A stretch of DNA of 64,000 nt from an uncultured Candidatus Saccharibacteria bacterium (GCA_964608745.1 CAZSPC010000001.1:750-64749), one strand, 5' to 3'. Counted from the first letter of the stretch, positions 3,117 to 40,699 are shown. The notes: generated by a model not told the origin, from the letters alone. A program made the numbers and translations.

Positions 3117-3207
3117 AATAGCTAATAGCTAAAAGCTAAAAGCTGATAGTATTAAAATTTTCAAAGGAAATTTTTGCTATGAGCTACAAGCTATAGGCTA
3201 TAAGCTG
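3117..3207 (+). repeat. family A variant repeat (agctaaaagct arms) between rplJ and rplL
   Basis: atagctaatagctaaaagctaaaagctgatag ... ctatgagctacaagctataggctataagct inverted arms. Confidence 0.6.
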
Positions 3208-4962: not shown

Positions 4963-5362
4963 AAAAATAATGAGAAAATCCCAGCGTGAGCTGGGATTTT
5001 CTCATTATTTTTCTTAACCCAGCTCATTTTTAATAATAAAGTAGATTAATCAATAAAGTTTAAAAACACCATAAGTTTTATTTAGTCGAAAATTTATTTT
5101 TTAAAAATAGGGTTGGGTGTAAAAATTCTGTCATGTTGGCGGAATTTTTTAATGTTTGAATGGGTTAATTTTAAGATGAATTTTTTGCGAAGCAAAAAAT
5201 TCATCTTAAAATCCTAAAATTAAATTATTCGAAATTAAATCGAAATTAATCACTTATCCACAACAAACAAATCTAAAAAAGTCAAAATATTGTATTATTA
5301 TAGATAACCAATTATTACAAAATAATAGGTCGCGATTTATTAGTGTAATTAAAAAATTAATT

Positions 5363-6040
5363 ATGATATTACAAACATGGGGTGAGGTACTTGCTCAATC
5401 TTTTCAAGACTTATGGCTTGGAGTAGTTTCATTTGTACCCAGCTTAATCGTTGCGATTGTTATCTTTATCGCAGGATGGGTTGTAGGTGCTCTTTTGGGA
5501 AGAGTTGTATCTCAAATTGTTAAGTCTTTGAAGGTGGACAATGCTCTTCGAAGTGCTGGAACAGAAGCTGTTTTGAACAGAGCTGGATTCAAATTGGATT
5601 CAGGAGCCTTCTTAGGAGGATTAGTTCGATGGTTTGTCATCATCGTCTTCCTTGTGGCTGCTTTTGATGTTCTTGGTCTAAGTCAAGTTAACGATTTCTT
5701 GCAACAAGTAGTTCTACTTTACTTGCCACAAGTGATTGTTGCTGTGATGATTCTTTTGATTGCTGCTTTGGTTGCAGATGCTATGCAATCAGTTGTAAAA
5801 GGATCAGCTAAGGCTGCTGAGATTCGATCAGCTAATTTCCTAGGAAATGTTACAAAATGGGCTATTTGGATTTTCGCAATCTTGATGGCTTTGTATCAAT
5901 TAGGAGTTGCTGCTGCTTTTGTTCAAACTTTGTTTACAGGAGTGGTTGTAGCGCTTGCACTAGGTACAGGACTTGCTTTCGGACTTGGAGGAAGAGATCA
6001 TGCTGGTAAGTTCCTAGACAAGATAAGTAAAGAAAAATAA
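5363..6040 (+). CDS. membrane protein with repeated conserved TM-helix motifs (MscS-N-terminal-like TM_helix repeats)
   Basis: Three similar hydrophobic repeats (IVAIVIFIAGWVVGALLGRVV / VIVAVMILLIAALVADAMQSVV / AIWIFAILMALYQLGV); higher GC than background. Confidence 0.45.
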   Translation: MILQTWGEVLAQSFQDLWLGVVSFVPSLIVAIVIFIAGWVVGALLGRVVSQIVKSLKVDNALRSAGTEAVLNRAGFKLDSGAFLGGLVRWFVIIVFLVAAFDVLGLSQVNDFLQQVVLLYLPQVIVAVMILLIAALVADAMQSVVKGSAKAAEIRSANFLGNVTKWAIWIFAILMALYQLGVAAAFVQTLFTGVVVALALGTGLAFGLGGRDHAGKFLDKISKEK

Positions 6041-6054
6041 AATATCTTGAAATT

Positions 6055-6087
6055 ACTAAAACACCCGTCGATTGATGGGTGTTTTTG
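6055..6087 (+). terminator. rho-independent terminator
   Basis: acacccgtcgattgatgggtgt hairpin + T-run. Confidence 0.55.
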
Positions 6088-6158
6088 ATTTGACTTTTTT
6101 CAAAGTTTTGTTAAGATGTATCAAGCTCAATTACTCTGAATGAGGAGCTTTTTATATT

Positions 6159-6485
6159 ATGACAAGATCGATTAAAAAAGGTCCCTTTGTGGATGAAAAA
6201 CTTTTGAAAAAAGTAACAAACAAAAAGCCAGAGGATGGTGTTATTAAGACATGGGCAAGAGCCAGTCAAATTTCACCAGAAATGGTTGGTTTTACTTTTG
6301 GAGTTCATAATGGAAAGGATCATATTGAGGTTTTTGTAACAGAAGATATGGTTGGTCATCGATTGGGAGAATTTTCTCCAACCAAGAAATTCTATAGACA
6401 TGGAGGTAAGATGCAGAAGGAACTTGATCAAAAGAAGAAAGAAGCTGAAATTGCAGCAGCTAAAGCAGCAAAAGCAACAGCGTAA
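6159..6485 (+). CDS. rpsS: 30S ribosomal protein S19 (C-terminal K/A-rich tail)
   Basis: Conserved S19 core [12 protein letters not shown]...[29 protein letters not shown]. Confidence 0.9.
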
Positions 6486-6495
6486 AGATTAAAAA

Positions 6496-6987
6496 ATGAA
6501 AATTAAGGCAGAATTAAAGAATTATAGACAATCTTCTCGAAAAGTTCGGTTAGTTGCTGATCTTGTGAGAGGAAAAAAGGTTGAAAAGGCTTTAGCAGAG
6601 TTGAATTTTTTGAATAAAAAGGCTTCACTAGTAGTGAAAAAGTTGGTTAATTCTGCTGTTGCAAACGCAAAACACAATTTTAATCTTGAAAAAGATGTTT
6701 TGATTGTTGATGAAATACGAGTAGATGAAGGACCAACTTTGAAGAGATGGCGAGCTGGAGCGAGAGGAAGAGCTTTTCCTATCAAGAAAAGAACATCGAG
6801 AGTTTTACTTGTTTTGTCAGATGGTAAAGAAGATGTAAAAACAGAAAAAGAGCAAAAAAAGACAGAAACAAAACCAAAAACAAAGAAGACAACTCGAAAA
6901 ACGGCAAAAAAAGTAGTTAAAAAAACAGAAAAGATGACAAAGAAAGTTAAAAAAGTAAAGAAAAAAGACGAAAAAGTTAAAAAATAA
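6496..6987 (+). CDS. rplV: 50S ribosomal protein L22 with ~50-aa lysine-rich C-terminal extension
   Basis: L22 core followed by KTEKEQKKTETKPKTKKTTRK... tail. Confidence 0.9.
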   Translation: MKIKAELKNYRQSSRKVRLVADLVRGKKVEKALAELNFLNKKASLVVKKLVNSAVANAKHNFNLEKDVLIVDEIRVDEGPTLKRWRAGARGRAFPIKKRTSRVLLVLSDGKEDVKTEKEQKKTETKPKTKKTTRKTAKKVVKKTEKMTKKVKKVKKKDEKVKK

Positions 6988-7008
6988 CAATAAAATAGTA
7001 ACCCAGTG

Positions 7009-7116
7009 CTTAGCGTTTAGGGTTGTAGAGATGAATTTTGCCTTCGGCAAAATTCATCAAAGAAAAATCTTTGATTTTTCTACCTATACCCTAAACGCTG
7101 AACGCTAAACCCTATA
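7009..7116 (+). repeat. family A structured repeat upstream of rpsC
   Basis: agcgtttagggttgtag / gatgaattttgccttcggcaaaattcatc / agaaaaatctttgatttttct / ctacctataccctaaacgctgaacgctaaaccctat. Confidence 0.75.
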
Positions 7117-7120
7117 TATT

Positions 7121-7777
7121 ATGACTCACGTAGCACACCCATACGCACAAAGAATAAAAATATTAAGAGATTGGAAGTCTCGTTGGTTTAGTATGGGTCA
7201 GCAATACAAAGATTTTTTGAAAGCTGATATTTTGATTAGAGAATATTTGGAAAACAGACTGCGGGATATGTACGTTAGCTCGGTAGATGTTGAAAGAGAT
7301 GGCGATAAAATGAAGATTATTATCAAAACATCACGAGCCGGAATGATTATTGGTAGAAGTGGAGATGGAATTCAAAAGTTGAAAAATGAGGTATTAAAAA
7401 TTATCCAAAAAAACAAACTGGTTAAACCAGAGGAATTGAATATAGATGTGGAAGAGGTGAGATACCCTGAAACAGATGCTGGAATTGTTGGTTCAATGGT
7501 TGTTGAAGGGCTTGAAAAACGAATGCCTTTCAGAAGAGTTTTGAAAATGACCGCTGACAAAGTTATGGCAAATAAAGAAATTAAGGGTGTGAGAATTGTT
7601 GTTTCTGGAAGGCTTGGTGGGGCAGAAATGGCTAGAAAAGAACAAGTAAAACAAGGCCGAGTACCTTTACAGACTTTGAGAGCTGATATTGATTACGCTA
7701 CGAAAAGAGCGAATCTACCATATGGTGTTATTGGAGTGAAAGTTTGGATTTATAAAGGAGATGTATTTAATAAATAG
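7121..7777 (+). CDS. rpsC: 30S ribosomal protein S3
   Basis: S3 KH/C-terminal domain similarity; operon position. Confidence 0.9.
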   Translation: MTHVAHPYAQRIKILRDWKSRWFSMGQQYKDFLKADILIREYLENRLRDMYVSSVDVERDGDKMKIIIKTSRAGMIIGRSGDGIQKLKNEVLKIIQKNKLVKPEELNIDVEEVRYPETDAGIVGSMVVEGLEKRMPFRRVLKMTADKVMANKEIKGVRIVVSGRLGGAEMARKEQVKQGRVPLQTLRADIDYATKRANLPYGVIGVKVWIYKGDVFNK

Positions 7778-7882
7778 CGTCTAGCGTTTAGGGTTGTAGA
7801 GATGAATTTTGCCTTCGGCAAAATTCATCAAAGAAAAATCTTTGATTTTTCTACCTATACCCTAAACGCTGAACGCTATACT
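7775..7882 (+). repeat. family A structured repeat upstream of rplP
   Basis: near-identical to 7009-7116. Confidence 0.75.
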
Positions 7883-7892
7883 CTAAAATATT

Positions 7893-8330
7893 ATGTTATT
7901 GTTTCCCAAAAAAGCAAAATATCGAAAATGGCAGACTGGACGAAAACACCCCGAGAAAAGAGGTGTGGCTACTCGTGGTGTAAAAGTTGCTTTTGGATCT
8001 TATGGATTAAAAGCTTTAACAGCAGCGAGGGTGAAAGCAAATCAAATCGAGGCTGCTCGTGTTGCAGCTAACAGGAAAATTGGTAAGTTTGGAAAGATGT
8101 GGATTAGAATTTTCCCAGATAGACCTGTAACAAAGAAGGCTGCCGAGGTTGGTATGGGTAAGGGTAAGGGTGACCCGTATGCTTATTGTGTCGAAGTAAA
8201 ACCAGGAAGGATTTTAATTGAAGTTGACGGTGTAGATGAAGCAATAGCAAGAGAAGCATTGAGAAAAGCGGGAACAAAATTTCCTTTGAAAACGAAGGTT
8301 GTTAGCCGTGAAGATTCCGAAAATATTTAA
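7893..8330 (+). CDS. rplP: 50S ribosomal protein L16
   Basis: MLLFPKKAKYRKWQTGR... L16 N-terminus; operon position. Confidence 0.9.
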   Translation: MLLFPKKAKYRKWQTGRKHPEKRGVATRGVKVAFGSYGLKALTAARVKANQIEAARVAANRKIGKFGKMWIRIFPDRPVTKKAAEVGMGKGKGDPYAYCVEVKPGRILIEVDGVDEAIAREALRKAGTKFPLKTKVVSREDSENI

Positions 8331-8332
8331 AT

Positions 8333-8455
8333 TTTCCCAAAACTAGATGATATTCGCTTTTGTTTGCACAAGAATCTCAGTCGCTGTACTTAGTACATAC
8401 ACCTTCCTCGATTCTTGCACAAACAAAAGCGAATATCATCTAGTTTTGAAAAAAT
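8333..8455 (+). repeat. family B long inverted repeat (3' element) after rplP
   Basis: aaaactagatgatattcgcttttgtttgcacaagaatc ... gattcttgcacaaacaaaagcgaatatcatctagtttt. Confidence 0.75.
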
Positions 8456-8516
8456 TTATTTCATTAAGTTGAAAATATAGAAAAAATAAGTATAGTTATT
8501 GAAATAAAAAAAATGA

Positions 8517-8632
8517 ATCCCGTTAGAGATGTTAAGTTAGATTCTTCGGGAAAATTAATAAAGTAGATATATTGATTATGTTATTAAGTTTAATTCACAG
8601 ATACGGAAACTCCGTTTCCTATCTCTAATGGG
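8517..8632 (+). repeat. family C structured element ending at rpmC start codon
   Basis: cccgttagagatg...gattcttcgggaaa...tacggaaactccgtttcctatctctaatggg; second copy at 43878-43992. Confidence 0.6.
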
Positions 8633-8833
8633 ATGAAAGATTTAAAAAAGAAAACTGAAAAAGATTTACAAAAAATGTTGCAGGAAAAGAGAAAAACTCT
8701 TAGAGAATTTCGATTTGGATCTTCGGGAAGTAAAACCAAGAATGTAAAGGAGGGAAGTAATACTAAAAAAGAAATTGCTAGAATTTTAACAGAATTGAAA
8801 CAAAGAGAATTAGGGGGGTTAGAAAAGAAATAA
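8633..8833 (+). CDS. rpmC: 50S ribosomal protein L29
   Basis: Small helical protein with L29-like KELREFRF motif; operon position. Confidence 0.8.
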   Translation: MKDLKKKTEKDLQKMLQEKRKTLREFRFGSSGSKTKNVKEGSNTKKEIARILTELKQRELGGLEKK

Positions 8834-8968
8834 TTTTAATTTGTAAATTTTAAATTTTAATTCAATTTTAAATTATTAAATGAATAAATAATAAAAAAAT
8901 AAAATAATTAAAATTTAGTCATTGAATTAAAATTTACAAATTAAAATTTAAAATTTGAATATATAATA
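8834..8968 (+). repeat. family D AT-rich inverted repeat
   Basis: aatttgtaaattttaaattttaattcaat ... attgaattaaaatttacaaatt; related copies at 15496-15642 and 51857-51962. Confidence 0.5.
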
Positions 8969-9238
8969 ATGGAAAACACAAAAGATACAAAAGTAAATAC
9001 AGAAAAGAAGTCATCGGGAAAGATCCTGTCCGGTGTTGTTGTTTCTGACAAAATGCAGGATACGGTTGTTGTAAAAGTTCAAAGATTTGTAAAGCATCCA
9101 AAAATTGGAAAGTATGTCAAAATAGCAAAGAAATTTAAAGCACACGATGCAGGAAATACAGCTAAAATTGGAGATAAAGTAACAATAAAAGAGTGTAAAC
9201 CGGTATCGAAAGATAAAGCATTTATTTTGGAAAAATAA
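8969..9238 (+). CDS. rpsQ: 30S ribosomal protein S17
   Basis: S17 OB-fold sequence; operon position. Confidence 0.85.
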   Translation: MENTKDTKVNTEKKSSGKILSGVVVSDKMQDTVVVKVQRFVKHPKIGKYVKIAKKFKAHDAGNTAKIGDKVTIKECKPVSKDKAFILEK

Positions 9239-9242
9239 ATAG

Positions 9243-9355
9243 AAGCGTTTAGCGTTTAGGGTTGTAGGAATGAATTTTGCCTTCGGTAAAATTCATCAAA
9301 GAAAAATCTTTGATTTTTCTACCTATACCCTAAACGCTGAACGCTATACCCTAAG
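9243..9355 (+). repeat. family A structured repeat upstream of rplN
   Basis: same architecture as 7009-7116. Confidence 0.75.
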
Positions 9356-9359
9356 CAAT

Positions 9360-9731
9360 ATGATTCAACCACAATCAATAGTAAAAATAACAGATAACTC
9401 AGGTGGAAAAATCGGCCGTGTTTTCAAGGTTATCGGTGGTTCAAAAAAGAGATATGCTCGAATTGGGGATGTTGTTGTTTTGTCTGTGCAGTCGGCAGAA
9501 CCACGAAAACAGGTAAAGAAAAAAGATGTTCTAAGAGCGGTAGTTGTCCGACAAAAACAACCTTTGAGAAGAAAGGATGGGTCATATATTTATTTTGATG
9601 AAAATTCAGTAGTGATTATTGATAAAGAAAAGAAAGAACCAAGGGCAAATAGGGTTTTTGGACCAATTCCGAGGGAGATTTCGGAAATGGGGTATCAGAA
9701 GATTGCATCGTTGGCCCCAGAAATAGTGTAA
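9360..9731 (+). CDS. rplN: 50S ribosomal protein L14
   Basis: MIQPQSIVKITDNSGGK matches L14 N-terminus; upstream in-frame codons are repeat-derived. Confidence 0.9.
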   Translation: MIQPQSIVKITDNSGGKIGRVFKVIGGSKKRYARIGDVVVLSVQSAEPRKQVKKKDVLRAVVVRQKQPLRRKDGSYIYFDENSVVIIDKEKKEPRANRVFGPIPREISEMGYQKIASLAPEIV

Positions 9732-9733
9732 CA

Positions 9734-9833
9734 AGCGTTTAGCGTTATAGCATTTAGCGTTGTAGGGAAAATTTTGGCTTTAGCCAAAATTTAAAAAAAT
9801 CTATAACCCTAAACGCTAAACCCTACAACCCTA
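9734..9833 (+). repeat. family A structured repeat upstream of rplX (covarying hairpin aattttggctttagccaaaattt)
   Basis: arms agcgtttagcgttatagcatttagcgttgtag / ctataaccctaaacgctaaaccctacaaccctac. Confidence 0.7.
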
Positions 9834-9840
9834 CAAAAAT

Positions 9841-10149
9841 ATGAAAATCAAAAAAGAAGACAAAGTAATAGTAATTGCCGGAAAGGATAAAGGAAAAACT
9901 GGAAAAGTTTTGAAGGCTTTTCCTGCTGAAAACAAAGTTATTGTTGAAGGTGTGAATATTAAGAAAAAACACCAAAAAGCAACTAGAAGTGGTCAGAAAG
10001 GACAAATAATCGATAAGACTTATCCAATTGATGTTTCAAATGTTATGTTAGCCGATCAAAAGAGTGGAAAACCAACGAGAATAGGAAAGAAATTGGTAGG
10101 TGATAAATTTGTTCGTGTAGCAAAGAAAAGTGGAACAGTTATTAAATAG
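9841..10149 (+). CDS. rplX: 50S ribosomal protein L24
   Basis: KOW motif IVIAGKDKGKTGKV; operon position. Confidence 0.9.
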   Translation: MKIKKEDKVIVIAGKDKGKTGKVLKAFPAENKVIVEGVNIKKKHQKATRSGQKGQIIDKTYPIDVSNVMLADQKSGKPTRIGKKLVGDKFVRVAKKSGTVIK

Positions 10150-10245
10150 CTTATAGCTTCTAGCCGATAGCTTATAGTGAAAAATTTGCCTTTGGCAAAT
10201 TTTTCAAAAGAAAGCTATCAGCTATGGGCTATAATCTATAAGCTT
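10148..10245 (+). repeat. family A variant repeat (agcttatagc arms) upstream of rplE
   Basis: cttatagcttctagccgatagcttatag / gaaaaatttgcctttggcaaattttt / gctatcagctatgggctataatctataagct. Confidence 0.7.
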
Positions 10246-10280
10246 AGAAACTATAAAATCAAAAAATAAATAAAAATACT

Positions 10281-10814
10281 ATGGAAATGTTAGTAGACAA
10301 ACAAAAACAAATCTTTGACCTTTTGAAAGGGGATTTTAACTATACCAATGTTATGCAAACCCCAAGAATGGAAAAGATTGTTGTGTCAGTTGGTACAGGC
10401 TCAACGATTGATAAAAAGAAAAAAGCTCTTATTGAAGACAGACTCACAAAAATCACTGGACAAAAACCAGCTTCTAGAAAAGCAAAACAATCAATTGCTA
10501 ATTTTAAACTTAGAGAGGGAAGTGATGTGGGGTATCAAGTAACTCTAAGAGGTAAAAGAATGGAAGATTTTTTCAACAAACTTGTAAATGTTGCTCTTCC
10601 TAGAACAAAAGACTTTCGAGGTTTGGATAAAAAAGGAGTGGATGAAATGGGAAATTATACTCTTGGAATCAAAGATCATACAATTTTTACTGAAACATCT
10701 GACGAAGAGTTGAAAAACGTATTCGGGATGTCTGTAACTATTGTTACTTCTGCAACAAGTAAAGAAGAGGCCGGTGCATATCTAGAAGGTCTCGGCTGGC
10801 CATTCAAAAAATAA
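10281..10814 (+). CDS. rplE: 50S ribosomal protein L5
   Basis: L5 sequence; operon position. Confidence 0.9.
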   Translation: MEMLVDKQKQIFDLLKGDFNYTNVMQTPRMEKIVVSVGTGSTIDKKKKALIEDRLTKITGQKPASRKAKQSIANFKLREGSDVGYQVTLRGKRMEDFFNKLVNVALPRTKDFRGLDKKGVDEMGNYTLGIKDHTIFTETSDEELKNVFGMSVTIVTSATSKEEAGAYLEGLGWPFKK

Positions 10815-10825
10815 TTTAAAAAATT

Positions 10826-10860
10826 AAAAAATGGTGGGTGTCCGACACCCACCATTTTTT
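10826..10860 (+). repeat. REP-like palindrome (ggtgggtgtccgacacccacc) acting as rplE terminator
   Basis: Same 21-bp palindrome as inside/after RAYT-2 (28112, 28598) and at 54226. Confidence 0.7.
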
Positions 10861-10948
10861 AATTTTTATATTGACTTATATTGTGTTTTGAGTAGTATAA
10901 GTGATGGAAGTATAGTAAATTAAAATAAAAATAAAAAAGAGGGAGATT

Positions 10949-11482
10949 ATGCACGATTACTGGACATTGTTACTAACAGGCGGAACTGTTGCTATTGCAA
11001 TTCACATTATTCTAACCTTTTTCTTTATGGAACTCGCGTTAGATAAAAGAAAGAGAGAATACGATGGCACCCTAAGGGTTAAAAAAGGGAAGATATTAAG
11101 ATTTTTTTATAGTTTACCGTGTGTTATGTTGGATAAAAATCCAAAGAACATATGTCAATTATTTTGGGGGATTTTCTTTGGTTTGATTGCAGACTATATT
11201 CTGATCGTAACTATTTTTGTATTTACGATTTATGTTATTTTTCCTTTTGGACAACATTTATCTGAAAAGGCCACAATCGAGGGTAGTTATTGGCCAGTTT
11301 TGAAGCCTTTTGTGGGATTTGTTGGTTTTATCGGTGCCATTTTATTTTTTCTTGGTATTTTCTTTTTTTCCGTATATCTTCTTACTGATGTTATATCAAG
11401 TGATAAATTTATGCCCGGGACAAAAGAGTGGTTTAAAAACAAGAAGGAAGAACACTGTTCACTCATTAAATTAGTTGATTAA
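10949..11482 (+). CDS. hypothetical 4-TM membrane protein inserted between rplE and rpsN
   Basis: GAGGGAG SD; hydrophobic segments. Confidence 0.4.
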   Translation: MHDYWTLLLTGGTVAIAIHIILTFFFMELALDKRKREYDGTLRVKKGKILRFFYSLPCVMLDKNPKNICQLFWGIFFGLIADYILIVTIFVFTIYVIFPFGQHLSEKATIEGSYWPVLKPFVGFVGFIGAILFFLGIFFFSVYLLTDVISSDKFMPGTKEWFKNKKEEHCSLIKLVD

Positions 11483-11621
11483 TTTATTATACAAGGTTGT
11501 ATCGAATACAACCTTGTTTTTTGTTGGTATCGGTAGGGTATTGATACCCTATCGATACCTAACGTTAGGGTAACGTTGCCTAAAAATATAAAAGGGCAGG
11601 AATCTGATTCCTGCCCTCTGG

Positions 11622-12134
11622 TTATATATTTTCGATAGGGAGTTTAATAAAACCCTCCGTATTTTCAAATACCGAAACAGCACCTGCTACTGGTTTCTTA
11701 ACCAGTAAACCGTTGATTAAAATAGGAAAATCTACCGGTGTTGAGAGTATTTTTAGAACAGCAATGAAGTCTCTTCTCATCTGGGTGTTGTCTTCTTTTA
11801 AGATACTCTCCGTTATGTTGGGATGATCTATTAAGGCCATTCCTAATGTACCTTGATCGATTTCTAGTTTTTTCACATTAAACTTTACCGATTTAGCCGT
11901 TTTCCAAAAATATCTAATAAGTACATTTGGTATTCTTGTTAAGACAACAACTTTTTGGTTTGCAACATAATTTATTTGACCTGTATGAGTTTTAGTTGCA
12001 GTAAATCCATTATAAGGACTTATGCTAACATGTATTTTCTGGCAAAAGCTATAAAAATCTAACATGTCGGGATGGGCAAAAAAATTAAACATATAATCTG
12101 TGAATCCTTTGTTCCCATGAAGAATTAGTTCCAT
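11622..12134 (-). CDS. hypothetical cytoplasmic protein (170 aa) inserted between rplE and rpsN
   Basis: GGAG SD on minus strand; flanked by hairpins 11490-11620. Confidence 0.4.
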   Translation of the reverse strand: MELILHGNKGFTDYMFNFFAHPDMLDFYSFCQKIHVSISPYNGFTATKTHTGQINYVANQKVVVLTRIPNVLIRYFWKTAKSVKFNVKKLEIDQGTLGMALIDHPNITESILKEDNTQMRRDFIAVLKILSTPVDFPILINGLLVKKPVAGAVSVFENTEGFIKLPIENI

Positions 12135-12233
12135 TTTTTCTCCTTTGATAATTTTATTGTTTATGAAAACTCTTTTTCTGGCTTGGATACTATCAAAACC
12201 CTATATATTTTGCAAGGCATTTCAGAATTTTGT

Positions 12234-12262
12234 TTGACTTTTAAAACCGTCTTTGCTAAGAT
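12234..12262 (+). promoter_or_regulatory. candidate sigma70-type promoter restarting rpsN after the insert
   Basis: TTGACT-17-TAAGAT. Confidence 0.35.
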
Positions 12263-12384
12263 ACTGCAAGTTATATTGAGTGTGTGGGTTGGGGATATTG
12301 CCCAGCCGTACTTTTATAAAATAAATTTTATAAAAGATACAGCTGGACTATATTTTTCTAATTCGCTTCGCTCAAAAGAAAAAT

Positions 12385-12570
12385 ATGGCAAAAAAATCTG
12401 TAATAGCAAGAGCAAATAAAAAACCAAAATTCTCTACAAGAATCGTGAGAAGGTGCTTTAAATGTGGAAGAAAGCGCGGATATATGAGAGATTTTGATTT
12501 GTGTAGAATTTGTTTTAGAGAATATGCGAACGAGGGAAAGATTCCTGGAGTGACAAAAAGCTCTTGGTAA
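12385..12570 (+). CDS. rpsN: 30S ribosomal protein S14 type Z (zinc-binding, 61 aa)
   Basis: [20 protein letters not shown] zinc-ribbon; operon position. Confidence 0.85.
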
Positions 12571-12584
12571 ACTATGAACACGAA

Positions 12585-12693
12585 GCTAATAGCTTATAGC
12601 CGATAGCTTATAGCCGATAGCTTATAGTGAATTTGCCAAAGGCAAATTTTTCAAAAGAAAGCTATCAGCTATGGGCTATAAGCTACAAGCTTG
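12585..12693 (+). repeat. family A variant repeat (agcttatagccgat tandem arms) upstream of rpsH
   Basis: arms tandemly repeated 14-mer; central hairpin gaatttgccaaaggcaaattt. Confidence 0.7.
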
Positions 12694-12766
12694 GTTGTGT
12701 TTGTAACAATCTGTGATAATTAACGAATATTTGGGCTGTAGCACAAGCTAGACGCCAAATAATAAT

Positions 12767-13156
12767 ATGGATAAAATTTCAAATTTAATAATAAGCATAA
12801 AGAACGCAGGTAATGTCAGAAAAGAGACAGCTTCTGTTCCTTATTCTCAATACAAAATGGAGATTACAAAACTCTTGAAAAAAGAGGGCTTTCTTGTGTC
12901 CGCTGAATCAAAAGGTAAAAAAGTAAAGAAAACTATTCAAATGGGAATTGCTTATAATGAAAACGGAAAGCCAAAAATTAATGATGTTAAAAGAATTTCC
13001 AAACCTTCAAAAAGGATTTATTATGGGGCAAAAGATATTCGACCAGTGAAAGGAGGATTTGGAACATTAATACTCTCAACCCCAAAAGGAATTATGACTG
13101 ATAAGATGGCTCGTAAAGAAAAGGTTGGAGGAGAAGCATTATTCAAAATCTGGTAG
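12767..13156 (+). CDS. rpsH: 30S ribosomal protein S8
   Basis: S8 sequence; operon position. Confidence 0.9.
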   Translation: MDKISNLIISIKNAGNVRKETASVPYSQYKMEITKLLKKEGFLVSAESKGKKVKKTIQMGIAYNENGKPKINDVKRISKPSKRIYYGAKDIRPVKGGFGTLILSTPKGIMTDKMARKEKVGGEALFKIW

Positions 13157-13165
13157 ATTTTGAAA

Positions 13166-13255
13166 AGCGTTTAGCGTTTAGCGTTGTAGGGAATAAATTT
13201 TAACTTTAGCCAAAATTTAAAAAAATCTATAACCCTAAGCGCTACAACCCTATAA
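13166..13255 (+). repeat. family A structured repeat upstream of rplF
   Basis: agcgtttagcgtttagcgttgtag ... ctataaccctaagcgctacaaccctat. Confidence 0.7.
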
Positions 13256-13267
13256 TCCTAATAAAAT

Positions 13268-13801
13268 ATGAGTAGAATAGCAAAACAACCAATAGAAATA
13301 CCCGAAAAGACAGAAGTTAATATTACTGATGGTGTTTTGATCGTGAAAGGACCCTTGGGAGAATTAAAAAGAGATTTGAGGTCTGAAATTGAAGTAAAAA
13401 TCGAGGATAATAAAGTGGTGGTAAGTGCAAAAGAAAAAACCAACTTTACTAAAGCAATGCTTGGAACAACAGCATCACACATCAGGAATATGATTGGGGG
13501 GGTAAATAAACCATATGAGAAAAAGTTGGTTGTGGAGGGGGTTGGTTTTAAGTCAGCTGTGCAAGGAAAGGATTTGAATATGAGTCTTGGATTTTCTCAC
13601 GATGTTATTATGTCAATTCCGGAAGATTTAACAGTGACAGCAGAAAAAAATGTTATAACAGTATCAGGGATTGATAAAGAGCAAGTAGGAAGATTTACGG
13701 CAGATATTAGAGCAAAGAAAAAACCAGAACCATATAAGGGCAAGGGCATTAGATATGAAGATGAAGTGATTCGTCGAAAACAAGGCAAAAAAACCGTTTA
13801 A
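13268..13801 (+). CDS. rplF: 50S ribosomal protein L6
   Basis: L6 sequence; operon position. Confidence 0.9.
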   Translation: MSRIAKQPIEIPEKTEVNITDGVLIVKGPLGELKRDLRSEIEVKIEDNKVVVSAKEKTNFTKAMLGTTASHIRNMIGGVNKPYEKKLVVEGVGFKSAVQGKDLNMSLGFSHDVIMSIPEDLTVTAEKNVITVSGIDKEQVGRFTADIRAKKKPEPYKGKGIRYEDEVIRRKQGKKTV

Positions 13802-13925
13802 ATTCCCAAAATTGGCACATTTCGCTTTTGTTTTGGCAAGAATTTCAGTCTCGCAGTATTAGTTTATACAGCTTCTTCAATTCTTGCCAAAACAAAAGCG
13901 AACTGCACTCAATTTTGAAAATTTA
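13802..13925 (+). repeat. family B long inverted repeat after rplF
   Basis: cccaaaattggcacatttcgcttttgttttggcaagaatt ... aattcttgccaaaacaaaagcgaactgcactcaattttg. Confidence 0.75.
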
Positions 13926-13945
13926 AATAATCTAAGAAATATTTA

Positions 13946-14305
13946 TTGAGTAAAATGAGCAAAAAAAATTCAAAAACAGAAAAAAGGACTCGAAGACATA
14001 ATAGAATTCGAGCCAAGGTAAAAGGAACAGCATCTGTGCCTAGGTTGAATGTGTTTAAGTCAAACACAGGTGTTTACGCACAGATTATTGATGATGAAAA
14101 GGGTGTGACCTTGGTTTCAAGTTCAACTAAAACAATGAAAGGAAAAACAACGACTGAAAAAGCACAACAGGTAGGTAGTGATTTAGCCAAAAAAGCAACT
14201 GCAAAGAAAGTAAAAAAAGTTGTTTTTGACCGAGGGGGGTATATTTTCACAGGAAAAATAAAAGCTTTGGCTGATTCAGCTCGAGAAGGTGGTTTGCAGT
14301 TTTAA
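13946..14305 (+). CDS. rplR: 50S ribosomal protein L18
   Basis: L18 sequence; operon position. Confidence 0.9.
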
Positions 14306-14335
14306 ATATTCAAATCTTTAAATTTTTAAATAAAA

Positions 14336-14983
14336 ATGACAGAAGAAAAAAAGGAAAAAAATAATATTGAAAAAACAGATTCTAATCCTGCAACCCAGGA
14401 TGGACAAAAAAAGAAAGTAGAAAAAACTCCTACGGATGTTAAGACTGTCTCAAAAGCAATAGCAGACAAAAAACCAGTCAGCAAAGAACGGCCAAAAAGA
14501 ACTTTTAAGAAAAATGTCCGACCAAGAAGAAGGGCTGGTTTCAAAAGACCAAAGCCAGAATTTGATCAAAAAATTATCGATATTCGAAGGGTTACTCGTG
14601 TTGTAAAAGGAGGGCGCAGATTTAGTTTTTCTGTTGTTATGATTCTTGGAAATAAAAAGGGAAAAGTAGGTGTTGGTGTTGGAAAAGCATCAGATACAGC
14701 ATTGGCAATCGAAAAAGCAATCAGAAATGCCAAGAAGAACATGATTCAATTGAAACTTACCGAGAACAACTCAATCCCTTACGAAGTCGATGCAAAATAT
14801 TGTGCTTCTAGGGTGGCAATTCGACCGGCCAAAGGACGGGGTGTTGTTGCGGGAAGTTCGCTCAGAACAGTTTTAGAATTAGCAGGGGTAACGGAAGTTG
14901 GTGGAAAAGTAATTTCACGAAGTAAAAACAAATTAAATAATGCAAGGGCAACTATCAAAGCCTTGCAGGCTTTTAAGGGGTAA
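14336..14983 (+). CDS. rpsE: 30S ribosomal protein S5 with ~70-aa basic N-terminal extension
   Basis: Conserved RVTRVVKGGRRF and S5 C-terminal domain. Confidence 0.9.
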   Translation: MTEEKKEKNNIEKTDSNPATQDGQKKKVEKTPTDVKTVSKAIADKKPVSKERPKRTFKKNVRPRRRAGFKRPKPEFDQKIIDIRRVTRVVKGGRRFSFSVVMILGNKKGKVGVGVGKASDTALAIEKAIRNAKKNMIQLKLTENNSIPYEVDAKYCASRVAIRPAKGRGVVAGSSLRTVLELAGVTEVGGKVISRSKNKLNNARATIKALQAFKG

Positions 14984-14987
14984 GGTT

Positions 14988-15039
14988 TAAGTAGTAAGTA
15001 ATAAGAAATGAATTTTTGCCTTTGGCAAAAATTCATTCA
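14988..15039 (+). repeat. truncated family A element (taagtagtaagtaataag arm + gaaatgaatttttgcctttggcaaaaattcattc hairpin)
   Basis: arm type matches copies at 55891 and 43200; right arm replaced by family E motif. Confidence 0.55.
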
Positions 15040-15075
15040 AAATTTACTAAAAACTATAAACTAAAAACTGACGAT

Positions 15076-15495
15076 ATGCAATTACATAACCTAAAAAAGA
15101 ATAAAACTAACAAAACCAGTATTAAGGTTGGACGAGGAGGAAAGAGGGGAAAAACTTCTGGAAAAGGACACAAGGGGCAAAAAGCTCGGGCTGGTAACAG
15201 CGGAAGACCTGAAATCAGGGATATTATTAAAAAGTTACCTAAACTTAGAGGTTATAAGTTTAATTCAATTAAAGCGTCAGCTGTTCCTGTGAATCTGTCT
15301 GAAATCGATAAAGCTTTTAAAGACGGAGAAAAAGTAAATCCTCGAACCTTGATTGCCAAAGGTGTGGTTAACCGACAAAGTGGAAAAATTCCAACTATTA
15401 AAATTTTAGGAACAGGAGAAATTACAAAAAAAGTTACTGTATCAGGATGTAAAATTTCAAAGAGCGCAGTAGAAAAAATAAGTAAAATCAAATAA
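15076..15495 (+). CDS. rplO: 50S ribosomal protein L15 (L30 gene absent upstream)
   Basis: KVGRGGKRGKTSGKGHKGQKARAG matches L15 N-terminus; upstream in-frame ATG at 15016 lies in a repeat. Confidence 0.85.
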   Translation: MQLHNLKKNKTNKTSIKVGRGGKRGKTSGKGHKGQKARAGNSGRPEIRDIIKKLPKLRGYKFNSIKASAVPVNLSEIDKAFKDGEKVNPRTLIAKGVVNRQSGKIPTIKILGTGEITKKVTVSGCKISKSAVEKISKIK

Positions 15496-15642
15496 GATAT
15501 AATCTATTTGATTTTAAATTTTAAGTTATAAATTTTAAATTTTAATTCAATTTTTAATGATTAAATTTTTTAAACATTTTAAATTTATAAATTGTATTAT
15601 TGAATTATAATTTTAAATTTATAATTTAAAATTGTTATAAAT
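15496..15642 (+). repeat. family D AT-rich inverted repeat upstream of secY
   Basis: ataaattttaaattttaattcaat ... attgaattataattttaaatttataa. Confidence 0.5.
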
Positions 15643-16911
15643 ATGAACTTCACAAACAAACTAAAACTAATAGCTAAAGATAAAAATCTAAGAACCAAAA
15701 TTGCTTTTCTGCTTGGTTTTTTGGTTTTGTTTAGAGTTTTGGCTTCGATTCCAATTCCGGGTGTTGATGTTGCTAAACTTCAAGAATTTTTCGCAAACAA
15801 CCAATTTTTCGGCCTTCTAAACATCTTTTCGGGGGGTGGCTTATCATCGCTTTCTATCATTATGCTTGGTGTTGGACCATATATTACCGCCTCAATTATA
15901 ATGCAGTTGATGACTATGATGTCTGAAAAGTTAAAGCAAATGTATCACGAAGAAGGAGAGGCTGGAAAGAAAAAATTTAGTCAGTATTCGAGACTATTAA
16001 CTGTTCCGCTTGGTGCCATTCAGGGTTATGCTTTTCTTAATTTACTTCAAAGCCAAAATGTAATCGGTGCATTACCGATGTTTGAAATGATTACTAATGT
16101 TGTGGTAATTGTTGCTGGTTCGATGCTCCTTGTTTGGATTGGAGAATTAATGACAGAGTTTGCAATTGGAAATGGTGTTTCGATTATTATTTTTGCTGGT
16201 ATCGTAGCCAGTCTTCCAACCACAATTAGCCAATTAATTTTTGCGTTTGATATCTCACAACTACCAGTTTATATCGGATTTATTGCTATTGCTATTGTGA
16301 TTATTGCCGGAGTTGTTGTTATTACAGAAGCAGAGAGACCTATTCCAATAAATTATTCAAAAAGAGTCAGGGGAAACAAAGTTTATGGTGGAGTTTCAAC
16401 ATATTTACCATTAAGAGTAAATCAGGCTGGGGTTATTCCAATTATCTTTGCGTTGTCTATTCTATTATTTCCCCAAATGATATTTACATTTTTAGTCAAT
16501 TTTGATAGTGCAGTGATCAGTTCTGTTTCAGATGTTGTGTTGGGTATTTTGGCCAATTCTTGGGTTTATGCGGTTATGTACTTTGTACTTGTATTCTTGT
16601 TTACTTATTTCTATACCGCAGTTACATTCGATCCAGAAGCTATTTCAACAAATCTCCAAAGAGGCGGAGCTTTCATTCCAGGGATTCGACCAGGAAGTCA
16701 CACATCAGAATATATCGCTAAGGTTTTGACTAGAATTACTTTGGTCGGAGCGCTTTTCCTCGGGTTTATTGCGGTACTTCCGCTTATTATGCAAGCTCTT
16801 ACAGGAATTACTTCGTTAGCAATCGGAGGTACCGCTTTGCTTATTGTGGTATCAGTAGTTATTGATCTCATCAAAAAAATCGATGCCCAAGTATCAATCA
16901 GGGAATACTAA
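15643..16911 (+). CDS. secY: preprotein translocase subunit SecY
   Basis: 10-TM protein with SecY signatures (GIQPYITASIIMQL, plug and hinge regions); follows rplO. Confidence 0.9.
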   Translation: MNFTNKLKLIAKDKNLRTKIAFLLGFLVLFRVLASIPIPGVDVAKLQEFFANNQFFGLLNIFSGGGLSSLSIIMLGVGPYITASIIMQLMTMMSEKLKQMYHEEGEAGKKKFSQYSRLLTVPLGAIQGYAFLNLLQSQNVIGALPMFEMITNVVVIVAGSMLLVWIGELMTEFAIGNGVSIIIFAGIVASLPTTISQLIFAFDISQLPVYIGFIAIAIVIIAGVVVITEAERPIPINYSKRVRGNKVYGGVSTYLPLRVNQAGVIPIIFALSILLFPQMIFTFLVNFDSAVISSVSDVVLGILANSWVYAVMYFVLVFLFTYFYTAVTFDPEAISTNLQRGGAFIPGIRPGSHTSEYIAKVLTRITLVGALFLGFIAVLPLIMQALTGITSLAIGGTALLIVVSVVIDLIKKIDAQVSIREY

Positions 16912-16980: not shown

Positions 16981-17664
16981 ATGTCAAGAAAAAAAGTAAA
17001 ATTTAGTGTCGGATGTTTCTACCATGTTTATAACAGAGGTGTTGATAAAAGAGAGATTTTTTCTGATAAACAAGACACACTTAGGTTTATAGAGAGCCTA
17101 GATGTGTTTAATACAATAGAGCCCATTGGTAGTATTTTTGCAGAAAAGAAAAGGGGTAGGGGTCGGACCCCTACCCCACCTACCCCAAAAAAACAAAAAG
17201 GAAAGCTAGTTAATATTATCGCTTATTGTCTCAACCTAAATCACTACCATTTTGTTTTAGAAGAAATTGTTGAGGGTGGTATAAGCGAGTTTATGAAAAG
17301 GTTAGGGGGTGGTTATACGGGATATTACAACATTAAATATAAGAGAAATGGAGTTTTATTTCAGGGAAAATTTAAGACGGTGCATATAAAAAAAGACGGT
17401 CAGTTGGAATATACGGTTGACTATGTCAATTTAAACAATTTGGTTCATAAAAAATTTGACGGTACCAAAAAACATTTTTTAGACGACATTCCAGCTAGAT
17501 CTAGTTGGAATGAATATATCAATGAAAATATAAAGGGTATTTGTGGCAAAGACATTATTCTTGATGTTTACAAAAAAGCGTATAGAAGTAGAAATACATA
17601 TGAATCTAGTGCCAAAGAAACATTAAAAATGGTAAGAGAGATGAGATACGGGGATGAAAAATAA
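16981..17664 (+). CDS. REP-associated tyrosine transposase (RAYT, IS200/Y1-transposase-like) copy 1
   Basis: YHVYNRG, HUH motif NHYHFVLEE, G-YTGYYN, LFQGKFK, YVNLNNL (RAYT YIHLNPV-like); flanked by palindromes at 16941-16962 and 17665-17690. Confidence 0.75.
   Translation: MSRKKVKFSVGCFYHVYNRGVDKREIFSDKQDTLRFIESLDVFNTIEPIGSIFAEKKRGRGRTPTPPTPKKQKGKLVNIIAYCLNLNHYHFVLEEIVEGGISEFMKRLGGGYTGYYNIKYKRNGVLFQGKFKTVHIKKDGQLEYTVDYVNLNNLVHKKFDGTKKHFLDDIPARSSWNEYINENIKGICGKDIILDVYKKAYRSRNTYESSAKETLKMVREMRYGDEK
17152..17176 (+). repeat. REP-like palindrome (ggtaggggtcggacccctacc) embedded in-frame inside RAYT-1
   Basis: encodes linker RGRGRTPTPPTP; same palindrome repeated at 16941 and 17668. Confidence 0.7.
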
Positions 17665-17801: not shown

Positions 17802-20800
17802 ATGGAAAAACATAAGCTGAAAATTTATATTTTACTAACAGTTGCTTTTTTGATGGTGGCTGTCTTTTTGCCGTTGAATATTACGAAAGCAAAAGAAATT
17901 TTGGTGGGCGAAAAAATATCCCAAGAGATTGAAAAAGTTATCGATTTACTTGAAGTTTTGGCTAAAAATACCTTTAGTTTTTTTGTAGAAAATAGGGCTG
18001 ATGGAATCAAAAAAATAGTTAATTCAACTAATAATCTTTTCATTTATGTTTATGTTGCTGATCCAAAATTCGAAGAAAAAGACAAAAATAAGGTAGAGTT
18101 TGCACAAAAAAAAGAAATCGAAGAACCAAAGCTAGAAATTCAAACTCAAAAAATTGTTTTTGTTGGACTTGTGGATGATTTTCGTCAAACTATTTTAGAA
18201 TTTATAAACCTAACGAAAATCTTTTCTCAAAATGTTTTAGAAGGAGCAAGTGAAGTTCGAAAAATAACAATTGATTTAACAACTAAATCTTTAAAAGATA
18301 CCCAATGGCTAATTCAAGAAAACAATTCTTTGGTTAATGGTATTCTAGGTAAAGGAGTTAAACAAGCTCAAAAAATTGTAATTTTTGCTAGTGAATTTAC
18401 AAATATTTACTATATTCAACTTGGAAAAATAACAACTAGAATACCTGATGTAGCAACTACCATAGTCACAAGTGCTTTTGATGATGTTCATATGGTTGTT
18501 AAAATCAATAACGATTTTGTAAACAACACTCTTGGCCGAGGAGTAAAAAAAATAAAAGTTACCGCAATTTGGACAACCAGCTTATTATCTTCAATGGATG
18601 ATAATTTTAAAAACCTGGCTCTAAGAATTTACAAAAACACAACAAAACTAACATCAGATACTTTTACTCAGATTAAAAAAACAACCCGCCAAGTAAAATT
18701 CCTTTTCTCTGAGTCTTTTGTGGGTTCGGGGATTGTTTTGGGTGAGAAAAAAGATTATCTTTTGGCTTCGGCTTATCGACAATCAAATCGAGGAAAAACA
18801 GTTCTTGAAAATACAGCTGTAAAAACATATAGATTTTTTAACAACTTGCTTATCTTTAATTTTGGCAATAATGAAGTGATTGTTGTTGAAGAAGAAAAAC
18901 ACAACGAACTAAAAGAGGAACCACAAAAAGAAATACAAAATGTCAATCCGCCTAAGGTAGAAGAGCAGGTAAAAGTAGTTTATCAACCAACTAATACAAT
19001 TGTTGAAAGAGTAATTCAGGCAACTAGTGGTGTAACACCAGCAGATCTACAAAAACTAAAAAACGAATTATTGCAAGAGATTTACAGAATGGCAGATAAA
19101 TCAACACCAACTATATATCCAATATCTAACTACGCAGCTATTGCTCACACAAACAAAATTGATCAACTAAATTCTGTTACTATCAATTCATCAGCAATCA
19201 GTGGCGGGACTATTAGCGGAGCAACAATAACTAACACACCAATTTCCGGTTCAACTGGATCATTCACAATACTTTCGGTGTCTGATAGCGCAACAATTGG
19301 GGGACAATTTACAGCAAATAGTGCCTCAACAACCCAATTAACTGTTTCTGACCGATCTTGGTTTACTGGTTTAGCTTCTTTTGGTAATGCAACAACTTCA
19401 AACTTAACAGTAACCGGAATACTTTATGACTCAGACGGAGAAGCTGGTATATCGGGTCAAGTTCTTTCTACCACAGCAACTGGAACGAGTTGGACAACTA
19501 ATTCTTCAACCCAAGATTCAGACGGAGATACAATGATTCAAGCAGAAGAATCAGCTGACGAAGATAAAATTAGATTTGATACTGCCGGAACAGAAAGGAT
19601 GGTTATTGATGAAGATGGAAAAATTGGAATAGCAACAACTTCACCTTTATCAAAACTAACAATCTTCGGAGATGTGTTCCTAGACGGAGCAAATCGTTAT
19701 CTGAATTTTGGTACAACTACTGCTACTTCATCTGCTGGTTATGGTATTAGAGATAATTTAGGAACAATACAATACAAAAACCTAGGAGGTTCTTGGGCTG
19801 ATGTTGGAAGTGGAGGAGGGTCAGGAACAGTAACTTCTGTTGATATGACAGTCCCAACCGGATTATCTGTTTCAGGAAATCCAATTACTACATCTGGCAC
19901 ACTAGCTCTAACCTATTCTGCTGGTTATGAAGGGCTAAAAACAGCTTCATCAACTAACTGGAATACTTTCTACGATACTCCTTCAAACAGAATCACGGCT
20001 GGAACAGGATTGAGTTGGTCAACTAACACACTTAATGCTGAAGTACAATCATCAGATTTAAATAACTACCTTTCACTAGTAAATTGGTACGCAACAACAA
20101 CTCACGAAAATATTTCTTCTCTCCCTTCGCTTTCAATCACAGAATCACAAATTTCAGATCTTGATCATTTCGATGGAGGAGGTTTTTACACATATTTCAA
20201 TGCAACTAATACGGATGCTCTTAGCGAAGGTTCTTCAAACCTTTATTACACAGACGCAAGGGCTCGATCTGCCATCGATTCTTCTGCTACAGGATTAACT
20301 TATACACCAGGGACAGGAATCTTTTCTCTAACCCCTGGTTACAACATTCCATTAACAGCCAGCACAACTAACTGGAATAATTTTTATGATACTCCTTCGG
20401 GTCAAATTACAGCAGGAACAAATATTTCTTGGTCTTCAAATACTTTAAATGTTGATGATGCGTTTTTAATTAATAATGGAGATGATGCAACTACGGGACA
20501 GCTTACCGCAGCAAACTTTGTAGCTTCGTCCGGTACAGCAACTTCCACATTTGCCGGTGGCTTGAATGTAGGAAGCGGAGGTTTGATTTATGATTATTCG
20601 AGTGGAAAAGTAGGTATTGGAACAGATTCTCCGGTTACTAATTTAGAAATAAGTAGTAACGAAACAACAGAATTGAGAATTGGACATGGAAATAATTGGA
20701 ATGGTGCCTTGTCGTTTTATGAGGGAGGAGTACCTTCTTGGTCTTTTTATAACGTTGGAAATGGCGACTTGTTTCAATTTAATTATGCTGGTACAGGAAT

Positions 20801-31821: not shown

Positions 31822-32067
31822 GATTTTTTTAAAATCTGCAAGCATTGTTTGTTTGCAGATTTTTTATTTTGATAATATAATACTAATAAGGCTCTCTGGA
31901 AATTATATTTCTAGCTAACGCATTTTAAGGGAATTTCTGTAAGGTTGCATCTTGGTGTAGTCTTCAAAATTTTACCCAACCTAGATTTTTTCTAGGAATA
32001 AATGTCCCAGATAGCCTAATACAGAAAACCATCCGTCCTAGATTGGCGGATGGTTTTTGTATTTTAA

Positions 32068-32208: not shown

Positions 32209-32254
32209 ATTTTTGGGTTTAATTTTTTAGAACAAAAAAGCTATAATATTATAG

Positions 32255-36684: not shown

Positions 36685-36803
36685 AATTTAAAAGATTTAG
36701 GATTTAGGATTTAAGATGTAAGATTTAAGAATTCAAAAATTAAAGGAATTCGCTTTGCGAATTCCTTTTCTTAAATCTTAAATCATAAATCTTTGTTAAG
36801 ATT

Positions 36804-40697: not shown

Positions 40698-40699
40698 AA

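Follow-up and report, generated by a model that had tools for sequence, protein, structure and literature searches.

The 23S ribosomal RNA (rRNA) gene of Coxiella contains an intervening sequence (IVS) whose 28-bp terminal stem is cut by RNase III and whose loop holds an S23p open reading frame (ORF), together with tandem heptameric repeats that vary in number between strains (PMC4990558). ORF-less forms of ~100 nt exist in other bacteria, and these sequences are sporadically distributed and regarded as selfish (PMC4990558, PMC11270868); rRNA insertions of the candidate phyla radiation (CPR) include 23S_rRNA_IVP ORFs (PMC11270868), and cas operons have been seen to harbour PF05635 genes, one of them placed between cmr3 and cmr2 (PMC3936711). 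In mRNA, the hairpins of Correia repeats are cut by RNase III, ERIC sequences modulate RNase E access, and the fate of the message is altered (PMC10969869). Here we analysed a 64,000-nt stretch of DNA (the window) from an uncultured Candidatus Saccharibacteria bacterium (GCA_964608745.1, CAZSPC010000001.1:750-64749), in which a family of palindromic elements, termed family A, occupies many junctions between ribosomal-protein (r-protein) genes. On balance, we think that family A consists of lineage-restricted, ORF-less, IVS-type foldback insertions that are co-transcribed within operons and whose stem is either handled by RNase III or bridges the stop and start codons of neighbouring genes.

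Like the rRNA IVSs of Coxiella, Leptospira and the CPR, family A has terminal inverted repeats forming a long stem around a PF05635 ORF, and it shares with the Coxiella IVS tandem heptameric repeats of variable copy number. Its complementary termini form a stem of about 20 bp or more, as in an IVS, and an S23p/PF05635 ORF lies in the loop of two long copies and is lacking from 18 short ones. The hosts differ, however, since the IVSs reside in an rRNA helix whereas family A sits in mRNA at stop-to-start junctions between protein genes; in addition, the inverted arms of family A are themselves heptad arrays, 18 ORF-less copies are present in 64 kb, and RNase III excision with no religation, as for an IVS, can be proposed by analogy. 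Correia (NEMIS/CREE) and ERIC sequences resemble family A in their size of ~100-150 nt, their inverted ends and their insertion between genes with which they are transcribed. Correia repeats have defined 26-bp terminal inverted repeats, a TA target duplication and an IHF site, whereas family A has heptad-array arms of several classes, no visible target-site duplication (TSD) and a long form with PF05635 instead of a transposase-bearing parent. As in MITEs (miniature transposable elements with inverted repeats), the 18 copies of 72-123 nt are short, non-coding and multi-copy and have terminal inverted repeats, but no transposase-coding parent accompanies them, the long forms with matching ends encoding PF05635 and not a known transposase. 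REP/BIME sequences, which in E. coli stabilise upstream mRNA, and their RAYT (Y1) partners are comparable as extragenic palindromes inside operons; family A does not belong with these GC-rich units of 20-40 nt, being ~100 nt long, AT-rich, heptad-periodic and not located beside Y1_Tnp ORFs. The eukaryotic Foldback (FB) transposons have long inverted arms of short tandem sub-repeats around a central loop with or without ORFs, but differ from family A in domain of life and in scale, and no homology is implied.

Results

Repeats of one foldback architecture in r-protein clusters

The window has a G+C content of 34% and holds dispersed r-protein clusters, representative genes of which were confirmed by Pfam and by annotated neighbours in relatives. 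Nearly all spacers in these clusters measure 90-300 nt, and each folds into a strong hairpin. Family A contributes 18 short copies (72-123 nt) and two long copies of one foldback architecture, in which a left array of 7-nt repeats and an inverted array on the right enclose a small hairpin and, after it, either an A-rich linker or a second hairpin. The small inner hairpin, of the type AAATTTTGCC-loop-GGCAAAATTT, has an A/T stem and a GC-closed loop of 3-4 nt. An element was present at all 18 positions listed by an earlier reading of the DNA made without database searches (the sequence-only reading), and two further copies were found, one at 36691-36794 and a partial one at 5154-5225. The tandem-repeat arms and the mini-hairpin described in that reading are indeed part of the architecture; the second mini-hairpin, which it had taken to be general, is confined to ~5 copies, and the copy at 39547 is without the inner hairpin.

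The 18-mer TAGCGTTTAGGGTTGTAG, taken from an arm, occurred 16 times at one mismatch or less, with none expected. Identity within arms reached 0.64 at lag 7, falling to 0.55 at lag 14, compared with ~0.26 in coding DNA, and lag 7 was the peak period in 36 of 38 family A arms. Five arm classes were counted in the window, namely GCGTTTA/GGGTTTA, TAGCTTA/TAGCCGA, TAAGTAG/TAAGTAA, TTTAGGA/TTTAAGA and GGAATAA. Among the three neighbours at 7005, 7776 and 9244, identity over 124 nt is 87-91%, and the cores are nearly the same (few base differences by eye). Rfam covariance models gave no match at the gathering score anywhere in the 64-kb window, in which ARAGORN found neither tRNA nor tmRNA and which is also without rRNA.

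Compensatory changes maintain pairing between the arms

Single copies folded with energies of -22 to -58 kcal/mol. Sixteen short copies were aligned with MAFFT, and for the arm-pairing test the structure was supplied by hand from one copy. On this alignment 79.8% of the cells were paired, compared with 34-45% when the partners were slid, and double changes were seen in 19 of 41 pairs against a shuffle mean of 9.1; none of 500 shuffles reached the observed value on any of five measures. RNAalifold, run on the same alignment, recovered the inner hairpin only, because array lengths differ among copies, and found double compensatory changes in 10 of its 13 pairs. When arms were cross-paired, left arms paired with their own or with same-class right arms at a mean of ~-28 to -31 kcal/mol, whereas other classes gave -9.5. 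The alignment, shuffle and cross-pairing tests thus bear out the proposal of a structured palindromic family with compensatory changes in arms and hairpin. The further proposal, that the arms always remain complementary to their partner, holds for pairing by class and fails for the copy before rplO, whose own arms pair at -6.5 kcal/mol.

Long copies carry PF05635 genes

In the two long copies, arms of two family A classes enclose ORFs for PF05635/TIGR02436 proteins ("23S rRNA intervening-sequence protein"). Long copy 1 (38484-38888, plus strand) has CGTTTAG-class arms around an ORF (38516-38875, plus strand) for a 119-aa four-helix-bundle protein (E 4e-35), and its right arm abuts the ATG, at 38889, of an M50 peptidase gene. 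Long copy 2 (55891-56308, plus strand), upstream of the gene at 56340, has TAAGTAG-class arms which pair with each other at -32.8 kcal/mol and surround an ORF (55938-56279, plus strand) whose 113-aa product (E 2e-36) is 32% identical to that of long copy 1. Both had been counted among the mini-hairpin copies by the sequence-only reading, which missed the PF05635 coding; as far as sequence can tell, it is this coding that ties the family to rRNA intervening sequences. Both long copies have exact 18-mers in common with short copies, and arm pairing between long copy 1 and short copies gives -26 to -37 kcal/mol; therefore, the short copies are ORF-less relatives of PF05635 cassettes.

A metagenome scan with the PF05635 alignment yielded 80 loci, 66 of which had a complete ORF and flanks and were used. 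At 42 of these 66 loci the inverted complementarity between upstream and downstream flanks exceeded the 99th percentile of shuffles, and the arms could be seen to be heptad arrays, with many unrelated sequences among them (for example TCACAGT/TCGTAGT, AGGCACA, CAGAGAA, AGGGATC and TAGCGTT/TAGGGTA). The best repeat period was lag 7 in 65 of 132 PF05635 flanks, with ~12 expected, and the consensus of the heptad unit was YAG-NNNN. A stop codon within the heptad holds for the alignment of window copies but is not a general rule, as the GC-rich units AGGCACA, CAGAGAA and AGGGATC contain none; the conserved part is YAG. In 36 loci the PF05635 ORF was flanked on both sides by genes of its own strand, and in 2 it ran antisense to both neighbours (p=5e-9); the median gaps around the ORFs were ~60 nt. 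At one locus (L097), whose protein is 69% identical, the upstream stop is the first TAG unit and is followed by the array, the ORF ATG, the inverted array and the ATG of the next gene, which matches the layout in the window; a Magasanikbacteria homologue has the same layout. None of the 20 best PF05635 loci lay in an rRNA gene, and one lay between two tRNAs. Proteins that are 70-75% identical may have unrelated heptads, and more similar proteins tend weakly to have more similar heptads (rho -0.08, p=0.03).

A PF05635 hidden Markov model run over the r-protein loci of relatives found no such ORF, and PADLOC gave no defence-family match for the two PF05635 proteins. The Avd accessory protein of diversity-generating retroelements was considered and rejected, NF033474 scoring 20 bits against a cutoff of 80 and PF22296 remaining below its cutoff; nor was a reverse-transcriptase gene noticed in the window, most of whose ORFs were not scanned. 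Apparently, neither the heptad-array foldback as a general cassette outside rRNA nor its ORF-less forms in r-protein operons have been described, within a literature coverage that was incomplete.

Rapid turnover among close relatives

The closest named relative of the window is Candidatus Campbellbacteria, with an S3 protein 81% identical; a look-up of exact matches to the S3 protein of the window returned nothing. DNA of the organism is present in SRR31802803 and SRR24302411. The r-protein region is rearranged, rplJ-rplL lying upstream of rpsS, and four genus-level genomes keep this unusual gene order but differ at the junctions. The rpsC>rplP junction, of 115 nt in the window, measures 12 and 10 nt in two relatives and is filled by an AT-rich hairpin family in two others, while rpsQ>rplN, of 121 nt in the window, is 6 nt long in relatives or holds a 42-nt mini heptad array. 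The 129 nt of rpmI>rplT are reduced to 4-34 nt in four relatives, and at rplX>rplE all relatives have, as does the window, a family-A-like element, each with a different heptad class. Since junctions are empty (4-24 nt) or otherwise filled in genomes whose S3 is 78-92% identical, family A copies are insertions, and they share with MITEs the insertion polymorphism between related genomes. They read as insertions with fast turnover and not as conserved leaders; a conserved leader function finds no support in this variation among genomes. The inner hairpin with heptad-array flanks was seen only in these Campbellbacteria-level genomes, and more distant Paceibacteria carry other heptad-armed hairpins.

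Mini-arrays of 39-46 nt without the inner hairpin stand where the window has full elements in two relatives (L093 9955-10000 and 11660-11702; L096 1504-1542 and 3321-3362), with units CTGTAAA CTGTAAA CTGTTTA CTGTAAA and GCTGTCG GCTGTAA GCTGTCA. These mini-arrays could be remnants or seeds of elements.

Placement within operons and the Shine-Dalgarno question

The family is enriched before translation genes, being found at 16 of 30 of these compared with 4 of 51 others (p=8e-6). It had been claimed to precede nearly every r-protein gene, but the actual figure is 15 of 27, plus tuf, and other junctions carry other hairpin families. Between the end of the right arm and the ATG there are 5-17 nt in 14 of 18 copies and 46-137 nt in the remaining four. 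The left arm follows the upstream stop at a distance of 0-9 nt in 11 of 18, with the stop codon serving as the first array unit in several. Orientation is readable only from the inner modules (hairpin, then second hairpin or A-rich linker), because the arms mirror each other. So read, it followed the downstream gene in 18 of 18 copies, in agreement with the sequence-only reading, the opposite-strand part of that claim concerning a single copy (rplT); when more minus-strand copies were sought at rpmI>rplT of four relatives, only short, empty junctions were found.

A promoter and terminator scan of positions 6000-16000 detected promoter-like sites upstream of rpsS, rpmC and rpsN and no promoter-like or sense terminator-like site inside the copies. 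A role of the copies as promoters or sense terminators was therefore rejected, and the copies are internal to polycistronic units.

Element-preceded genes had no Shine-Dalgarno (SD)-like match (0/19, compared with 14/62 other genes, p=0.03), and this had been taken to mean that the element stands in place of an SD. Yet SD is likewise absent from 48 of the 62 genes (78%) not preceded by an element, and from the orthologous empty junctions in relatives (TTAAAATAACatg, TAATatg, AATAACatg). The element did not replace SD, since these operons have never possessed one at the junctions in question. Starts 4327, 16981, 26500, 32255, 34467, 57909, 59750, 60676 and 63158 have a TAnAAT-like hexamer 6-8 nt ahead of the ATG, which suggests that leaderless mRNAs are frequent; an SD-like match is present in only ~22% of element-free genes.

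Features of individual copies

The short copies lie on the plus strand unless stated otherwise. The copy before rplJ (2512-2605; -34.7 kcal/mol) has arms GCGTATA and CCCTAAACGC and an inner hairpin topped by GGC-TTT-GCC, and ends 7 nt before the ATG, while that before rplL (3119-3207; -32.5 kcal/mol) belongs to arm class TAGCTAA/GCTATAA and ends 8 nt before it. A partial or atypical copy (5154-5225) combines a strong inner hairpin with short arms, the next ATG being 137 nt away. At the rplV-rpsC junction (7005-7115; -52.7 kcal/mol) the copy has both mini-hairpins and ends 5 nt before the ATG; at rpsC-rplP (7778-7875) the first unit of the left array is the rpsC stop TAG, and this junction is empty in L093 and L095. 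The rpsQ-rplN copy (9244-9345; -55.3 kcal/mol) has a core nearly the same as those of the copies at 7011 and 7782, at a junction that measures 6 nt in L095, and the rplN-rplX copy (9734-9836) has a GGC/GCC variant of the inner hairpin and an A-rich linker that replaces the second hairpin. Two copies of the TAGCTTA/TAGCCGA class stand 3' of rplX (10147-10240), where the first array unit is the rplX stop and 46 nt separate the element from the rplE ATG, and 3' of rpsN (12578-12698; -54.6 kcal/mol), with an extended array and 68 nt to the rpsH ATG. An ATG within short copies opens small ORFs (MNFAFGKIHQRKIFDFSTYTLNAER...), at 9270-9731 and 7802-8071; the former continues in frame into rplN and would wrongly appear in annotation as 30 extra residues at the N-terminus of L14.

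A further short copy lies between rpsH and rplF (13166-13251). In the rpsE-rplO copy (14984-15062) the left array is of TAAGTAG type and has an exact 18-mer in common with long copy 2, and the right array, of CTAAAAA type, does not pair with the left. The rpmI-rplT copy (33269-33384), on the minus strand, is the sole opposite-strand case and shows its inner modules in inverted order on the plus strand. The copy before a metallo-beta-lactamase-fold gene (36691-36794), of arm class TTTAGGA/TTTAAGA, is the full-length one of the two additions to the earlier list, and the copy before rpsL (39547-39622) consists of arms only, with a short loop in place of the inner hairpin. The copy before tuf (46549-46656; -49.6 kcal/mol) ends 6 nt before the ATG, and another precedes rpsJ (48180-48277). 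The rplD-rplW copy (52627-52749; -58.2 kcal/mol) has a flipped loop (CGAA) and a variant second hairpin, and the copy 3' of rplW (53068-53163), of arm class GGAATAA/TTATTCC, lies 66 nt from the rplB ATG.

Other hairpin families and neighbouring features

A second hairpin family of ~115 nt (TTCCCAAAACTAG...TTCGCTTTTGTTT...), more conserved than family A, stands 3' of r-protein genes at 8335-8450, 13803-13921, 32065-32215, 40040-40160, 40697-40825, 47858-47975 and 48672-48790. The shape of this family and its apical sequence (TCGCCGTA...TACG) are found again in relatives with S3 only ~60% identical (L005 4712 and 12877; L006 8096 and 13894; L009 4221, 4722 and 11779; L177 1066 and 4640; L180 4500). 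Long AT-rich hairpins built of 7-nt units of TTTTAAA/TTGTAAT type were seen in the window at 8834-8968, 15517-15640 and 51857-51962, at rpsC>rplP of L091 and L096, and at 7563-7974 of L180; since they occupy the same junctions at which family A stands in the window, these hairpins may represent a further arm class of its architecture. A further hairpin, CCCGTTAGAGATG...CTATCTCTAAYGGG, is present in two copies (8518-8632 and 43880-43991), each with its 3' arm directly against an ATG, that of rpmC in the first and that of an unrelated gene in the second. TAAGTAG-type arrays at 54125-54320 and 43190-43296 hold other palindromes inside, a REP-like hairpin among them, which suggests nested insertions into an older element.

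Two ORFs for IS200-like Y1 transposases (Pfam Y1_Tnp; 16981-17664 and 27917-28594) are flanked by a GC-rich hairpin family, GGTGGGTGTCCGACACCCACC, found at 10833, 11594, 16940, 17154, 17667, 27885, 28110, 28600, 54227 and 59120 and located elsewhere at terminator-like sites. This family and the Y1_Tnp ORFs look like a REP/RAYT pair distinct from family A. Within the classical spc and S10 clusters, non-ribosomal ORFs without a Pfam match lie at 10949-12134 (rplE-rpsN) and 49115-51038 (rpsJ-rplC). An ORF of 1899 aa (17802-23501) with four internal 59-nt repeat units (GGAATAGGAACAACTTCACC...) probably encodes a repetitive surface protein.

Discussion

The observation is real, and family A is best placed among IVS/MITE-like foldback elements; it is neither a substitute for SD nor a gene-specific regulator. 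The sequence-only reading had offered three roles, an RNase III-type processing site, an SD-independent initiation element and a highly successful MITE, and the last of these came closest. That the elements are an IVS-type foldback family is, judged from their sequences, very probable. The short copies would then be miniatures of a cassette whose inverted 7-nt arrays enclose a gene for a PF05635 four-helix-bundle protein, a type first described as the 23S rRNA IVS. They would be transcribed within the operon mRNA, where the two arrays would pair into an imperfect stem of 20-35 bp capped by the small hairpin. Either of two outcomes would make the insertion harmless: RNase III may cut the stem, as in rRNA IVSs and Correia repeats, leaving the downstream cistron a short, G-poor, unstructured leader, or the stem may hold the upstream stop and the start that follows side by side, which would allow coupled initiation to go on without an SD. 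We put forward cleavage of family A stems by RNase III, on the analogy of these systems, as a tentative idea about which we have more doubt than confidence.

Several observations weigh against the interpretation of family A as co-transcribed, RNA-active IVS-type insertions. With 69 of 81 window genes on one strand, co-orientation is confounded, and inside the window orientation makes a weak test. Arrays that do not pair occur in the rplO copy and in similar copies in L093 and L095, and therefore the long stem is not universal. No known transposase is linked to family A, no TSD was visible when filled and empty junctions were compared by eye, without a formal search and with power limited by AT-rich, saturated spacers, and a search of the window and the fetched related loci for the RNase III signature motif returned nothing. 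The selection on RNA structure in mRNA leaders that had been proposed finds no support either: sense and antisense folding energies are equal, G·U pairs number 36 versus 28 in single-copy folds, G·U and A·C cells in the alignment are balanced (34 versus 29, p=0.61), and the hairpin loop can face either way (TTCG/CGAA, TTTG/CAAA). It could therefore be as DNA that the arms are kept complementary, and family A might be a selfish, MITE-like palindromic DNA repeat that spreads, being tolerated by a compact genome in its few gaps between coding sequences, and whose RNA fold is inconsequential for expression. Besides the strand symmetry and the flipped loops, such a repeat would agree with the rapid presence, absence and replacement between close relatives, the near-identity of neighbouring copies and the occupation of the same kinds of junction by other palindrome families. 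It is at odds, however, with the co-orientation of all 18 copies with the downstream gene, the precision with which the arms begin at the stop or close to it and end 5-17 nt short of the ATG, and the enrichment of the copies in highly expressed translation operons; the missing TSD and transposase partner count against it as well, and a stem of 20-35 bp in mRNA could hardly be invisible to ribosomes and RNases. We consider this explanation unlikely, while giving it real weight.

The same placement, with 0-9 nt from stop to arm and 5-17 nt from arm to ATG, would also suit a translation device selected by the host, in which the stem apposes stop and start and a terminating ribosome melts the stem base and frees a G-poor, C/A-rich leader for SD-independent re-initiation. 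The genes behind elements are without SD, the right arms are G-poor, and in the cassettes the PF05635 ORF and the next gene each begin right after an array. But orthologous junctions work with neither element nor SD, unrelated hairpins replace elements at the same junction, and four of 18 copies lie 46-137 nt from the ATG, all of which makes such a device improbable. The strict 7-nt periodicity, with a conserved YAG and four variable bases per unit across many unrelated loci, raises the question of whether the arrays are putative binding sites (iterons) for a protein, possibly a PF05635 pentamer, on DNA or RNA, with the stem being secondary; some non-pairing arrays keep the periodicity, and heptad similarity weakly tracks protein similarity. 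Unrelated heptads beside proteins 70-75% identical, and short copies that far outnumber the two PF05635 ORFs in the window, render this very improbable. Finally, a position 5' of r-protein genes and a strong structure are what autoregulatory leaders specific to each r-protein gene would show, yet one sequence stands before many different genes, is missing from orthologous junctions of relatives and has no match in Rfam, and, against transcription terminators or attenuators, A-runs instead of T-runs follow the hairpins, none of which was called as a sense-strand terminator; the presence/absence pattern effectively refutes both.

To our knowledge, no function or mobility mechanism has become known in 30 years for rRNA intervening sequences and S23p/PF05635 proteins. 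The window represents a genome with the cassette and its miniatures in mRNAs, where effects on processing and translation are measurable without touching the ribosome. With inverted YAG-NNNN arrays that are co-oriented in operon junctions as a general sequence rule, the family becomes searchable and a target of binding or cleavage is suggested; the presence of PF05635 genes in inverted heptad arrays is the most interesting by-product of this work and merits independent confirmation. For annotation, family A elements give rise to long spacers and to spurious N-terminal extensions, such as ORF 9270-9731 fused to rplN, which calls for caution. The window also offers a concrete case of ultra-small CPR genomes tolerating structured insertions of 100-130 nt in tight, translationally coupled, SD-less r-protein operons. 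More broadly, it is possible, though doubtful, that PF05635 genes in inverted YAG-NNNN arrays are widespread, undescribed selfish cassettes of operon stop-to-start junctions, for which the rRNA IVS is one special host site, and that Campbellbacteria-like ORF-less derivatives punctuate r-protein operons, their stems being cut to give messages of one gene each, whose leaders are short and SD-less. If true, such cutting of stems in long polycistronic mRNAs would be a bacterial analogue of punctuated processing.

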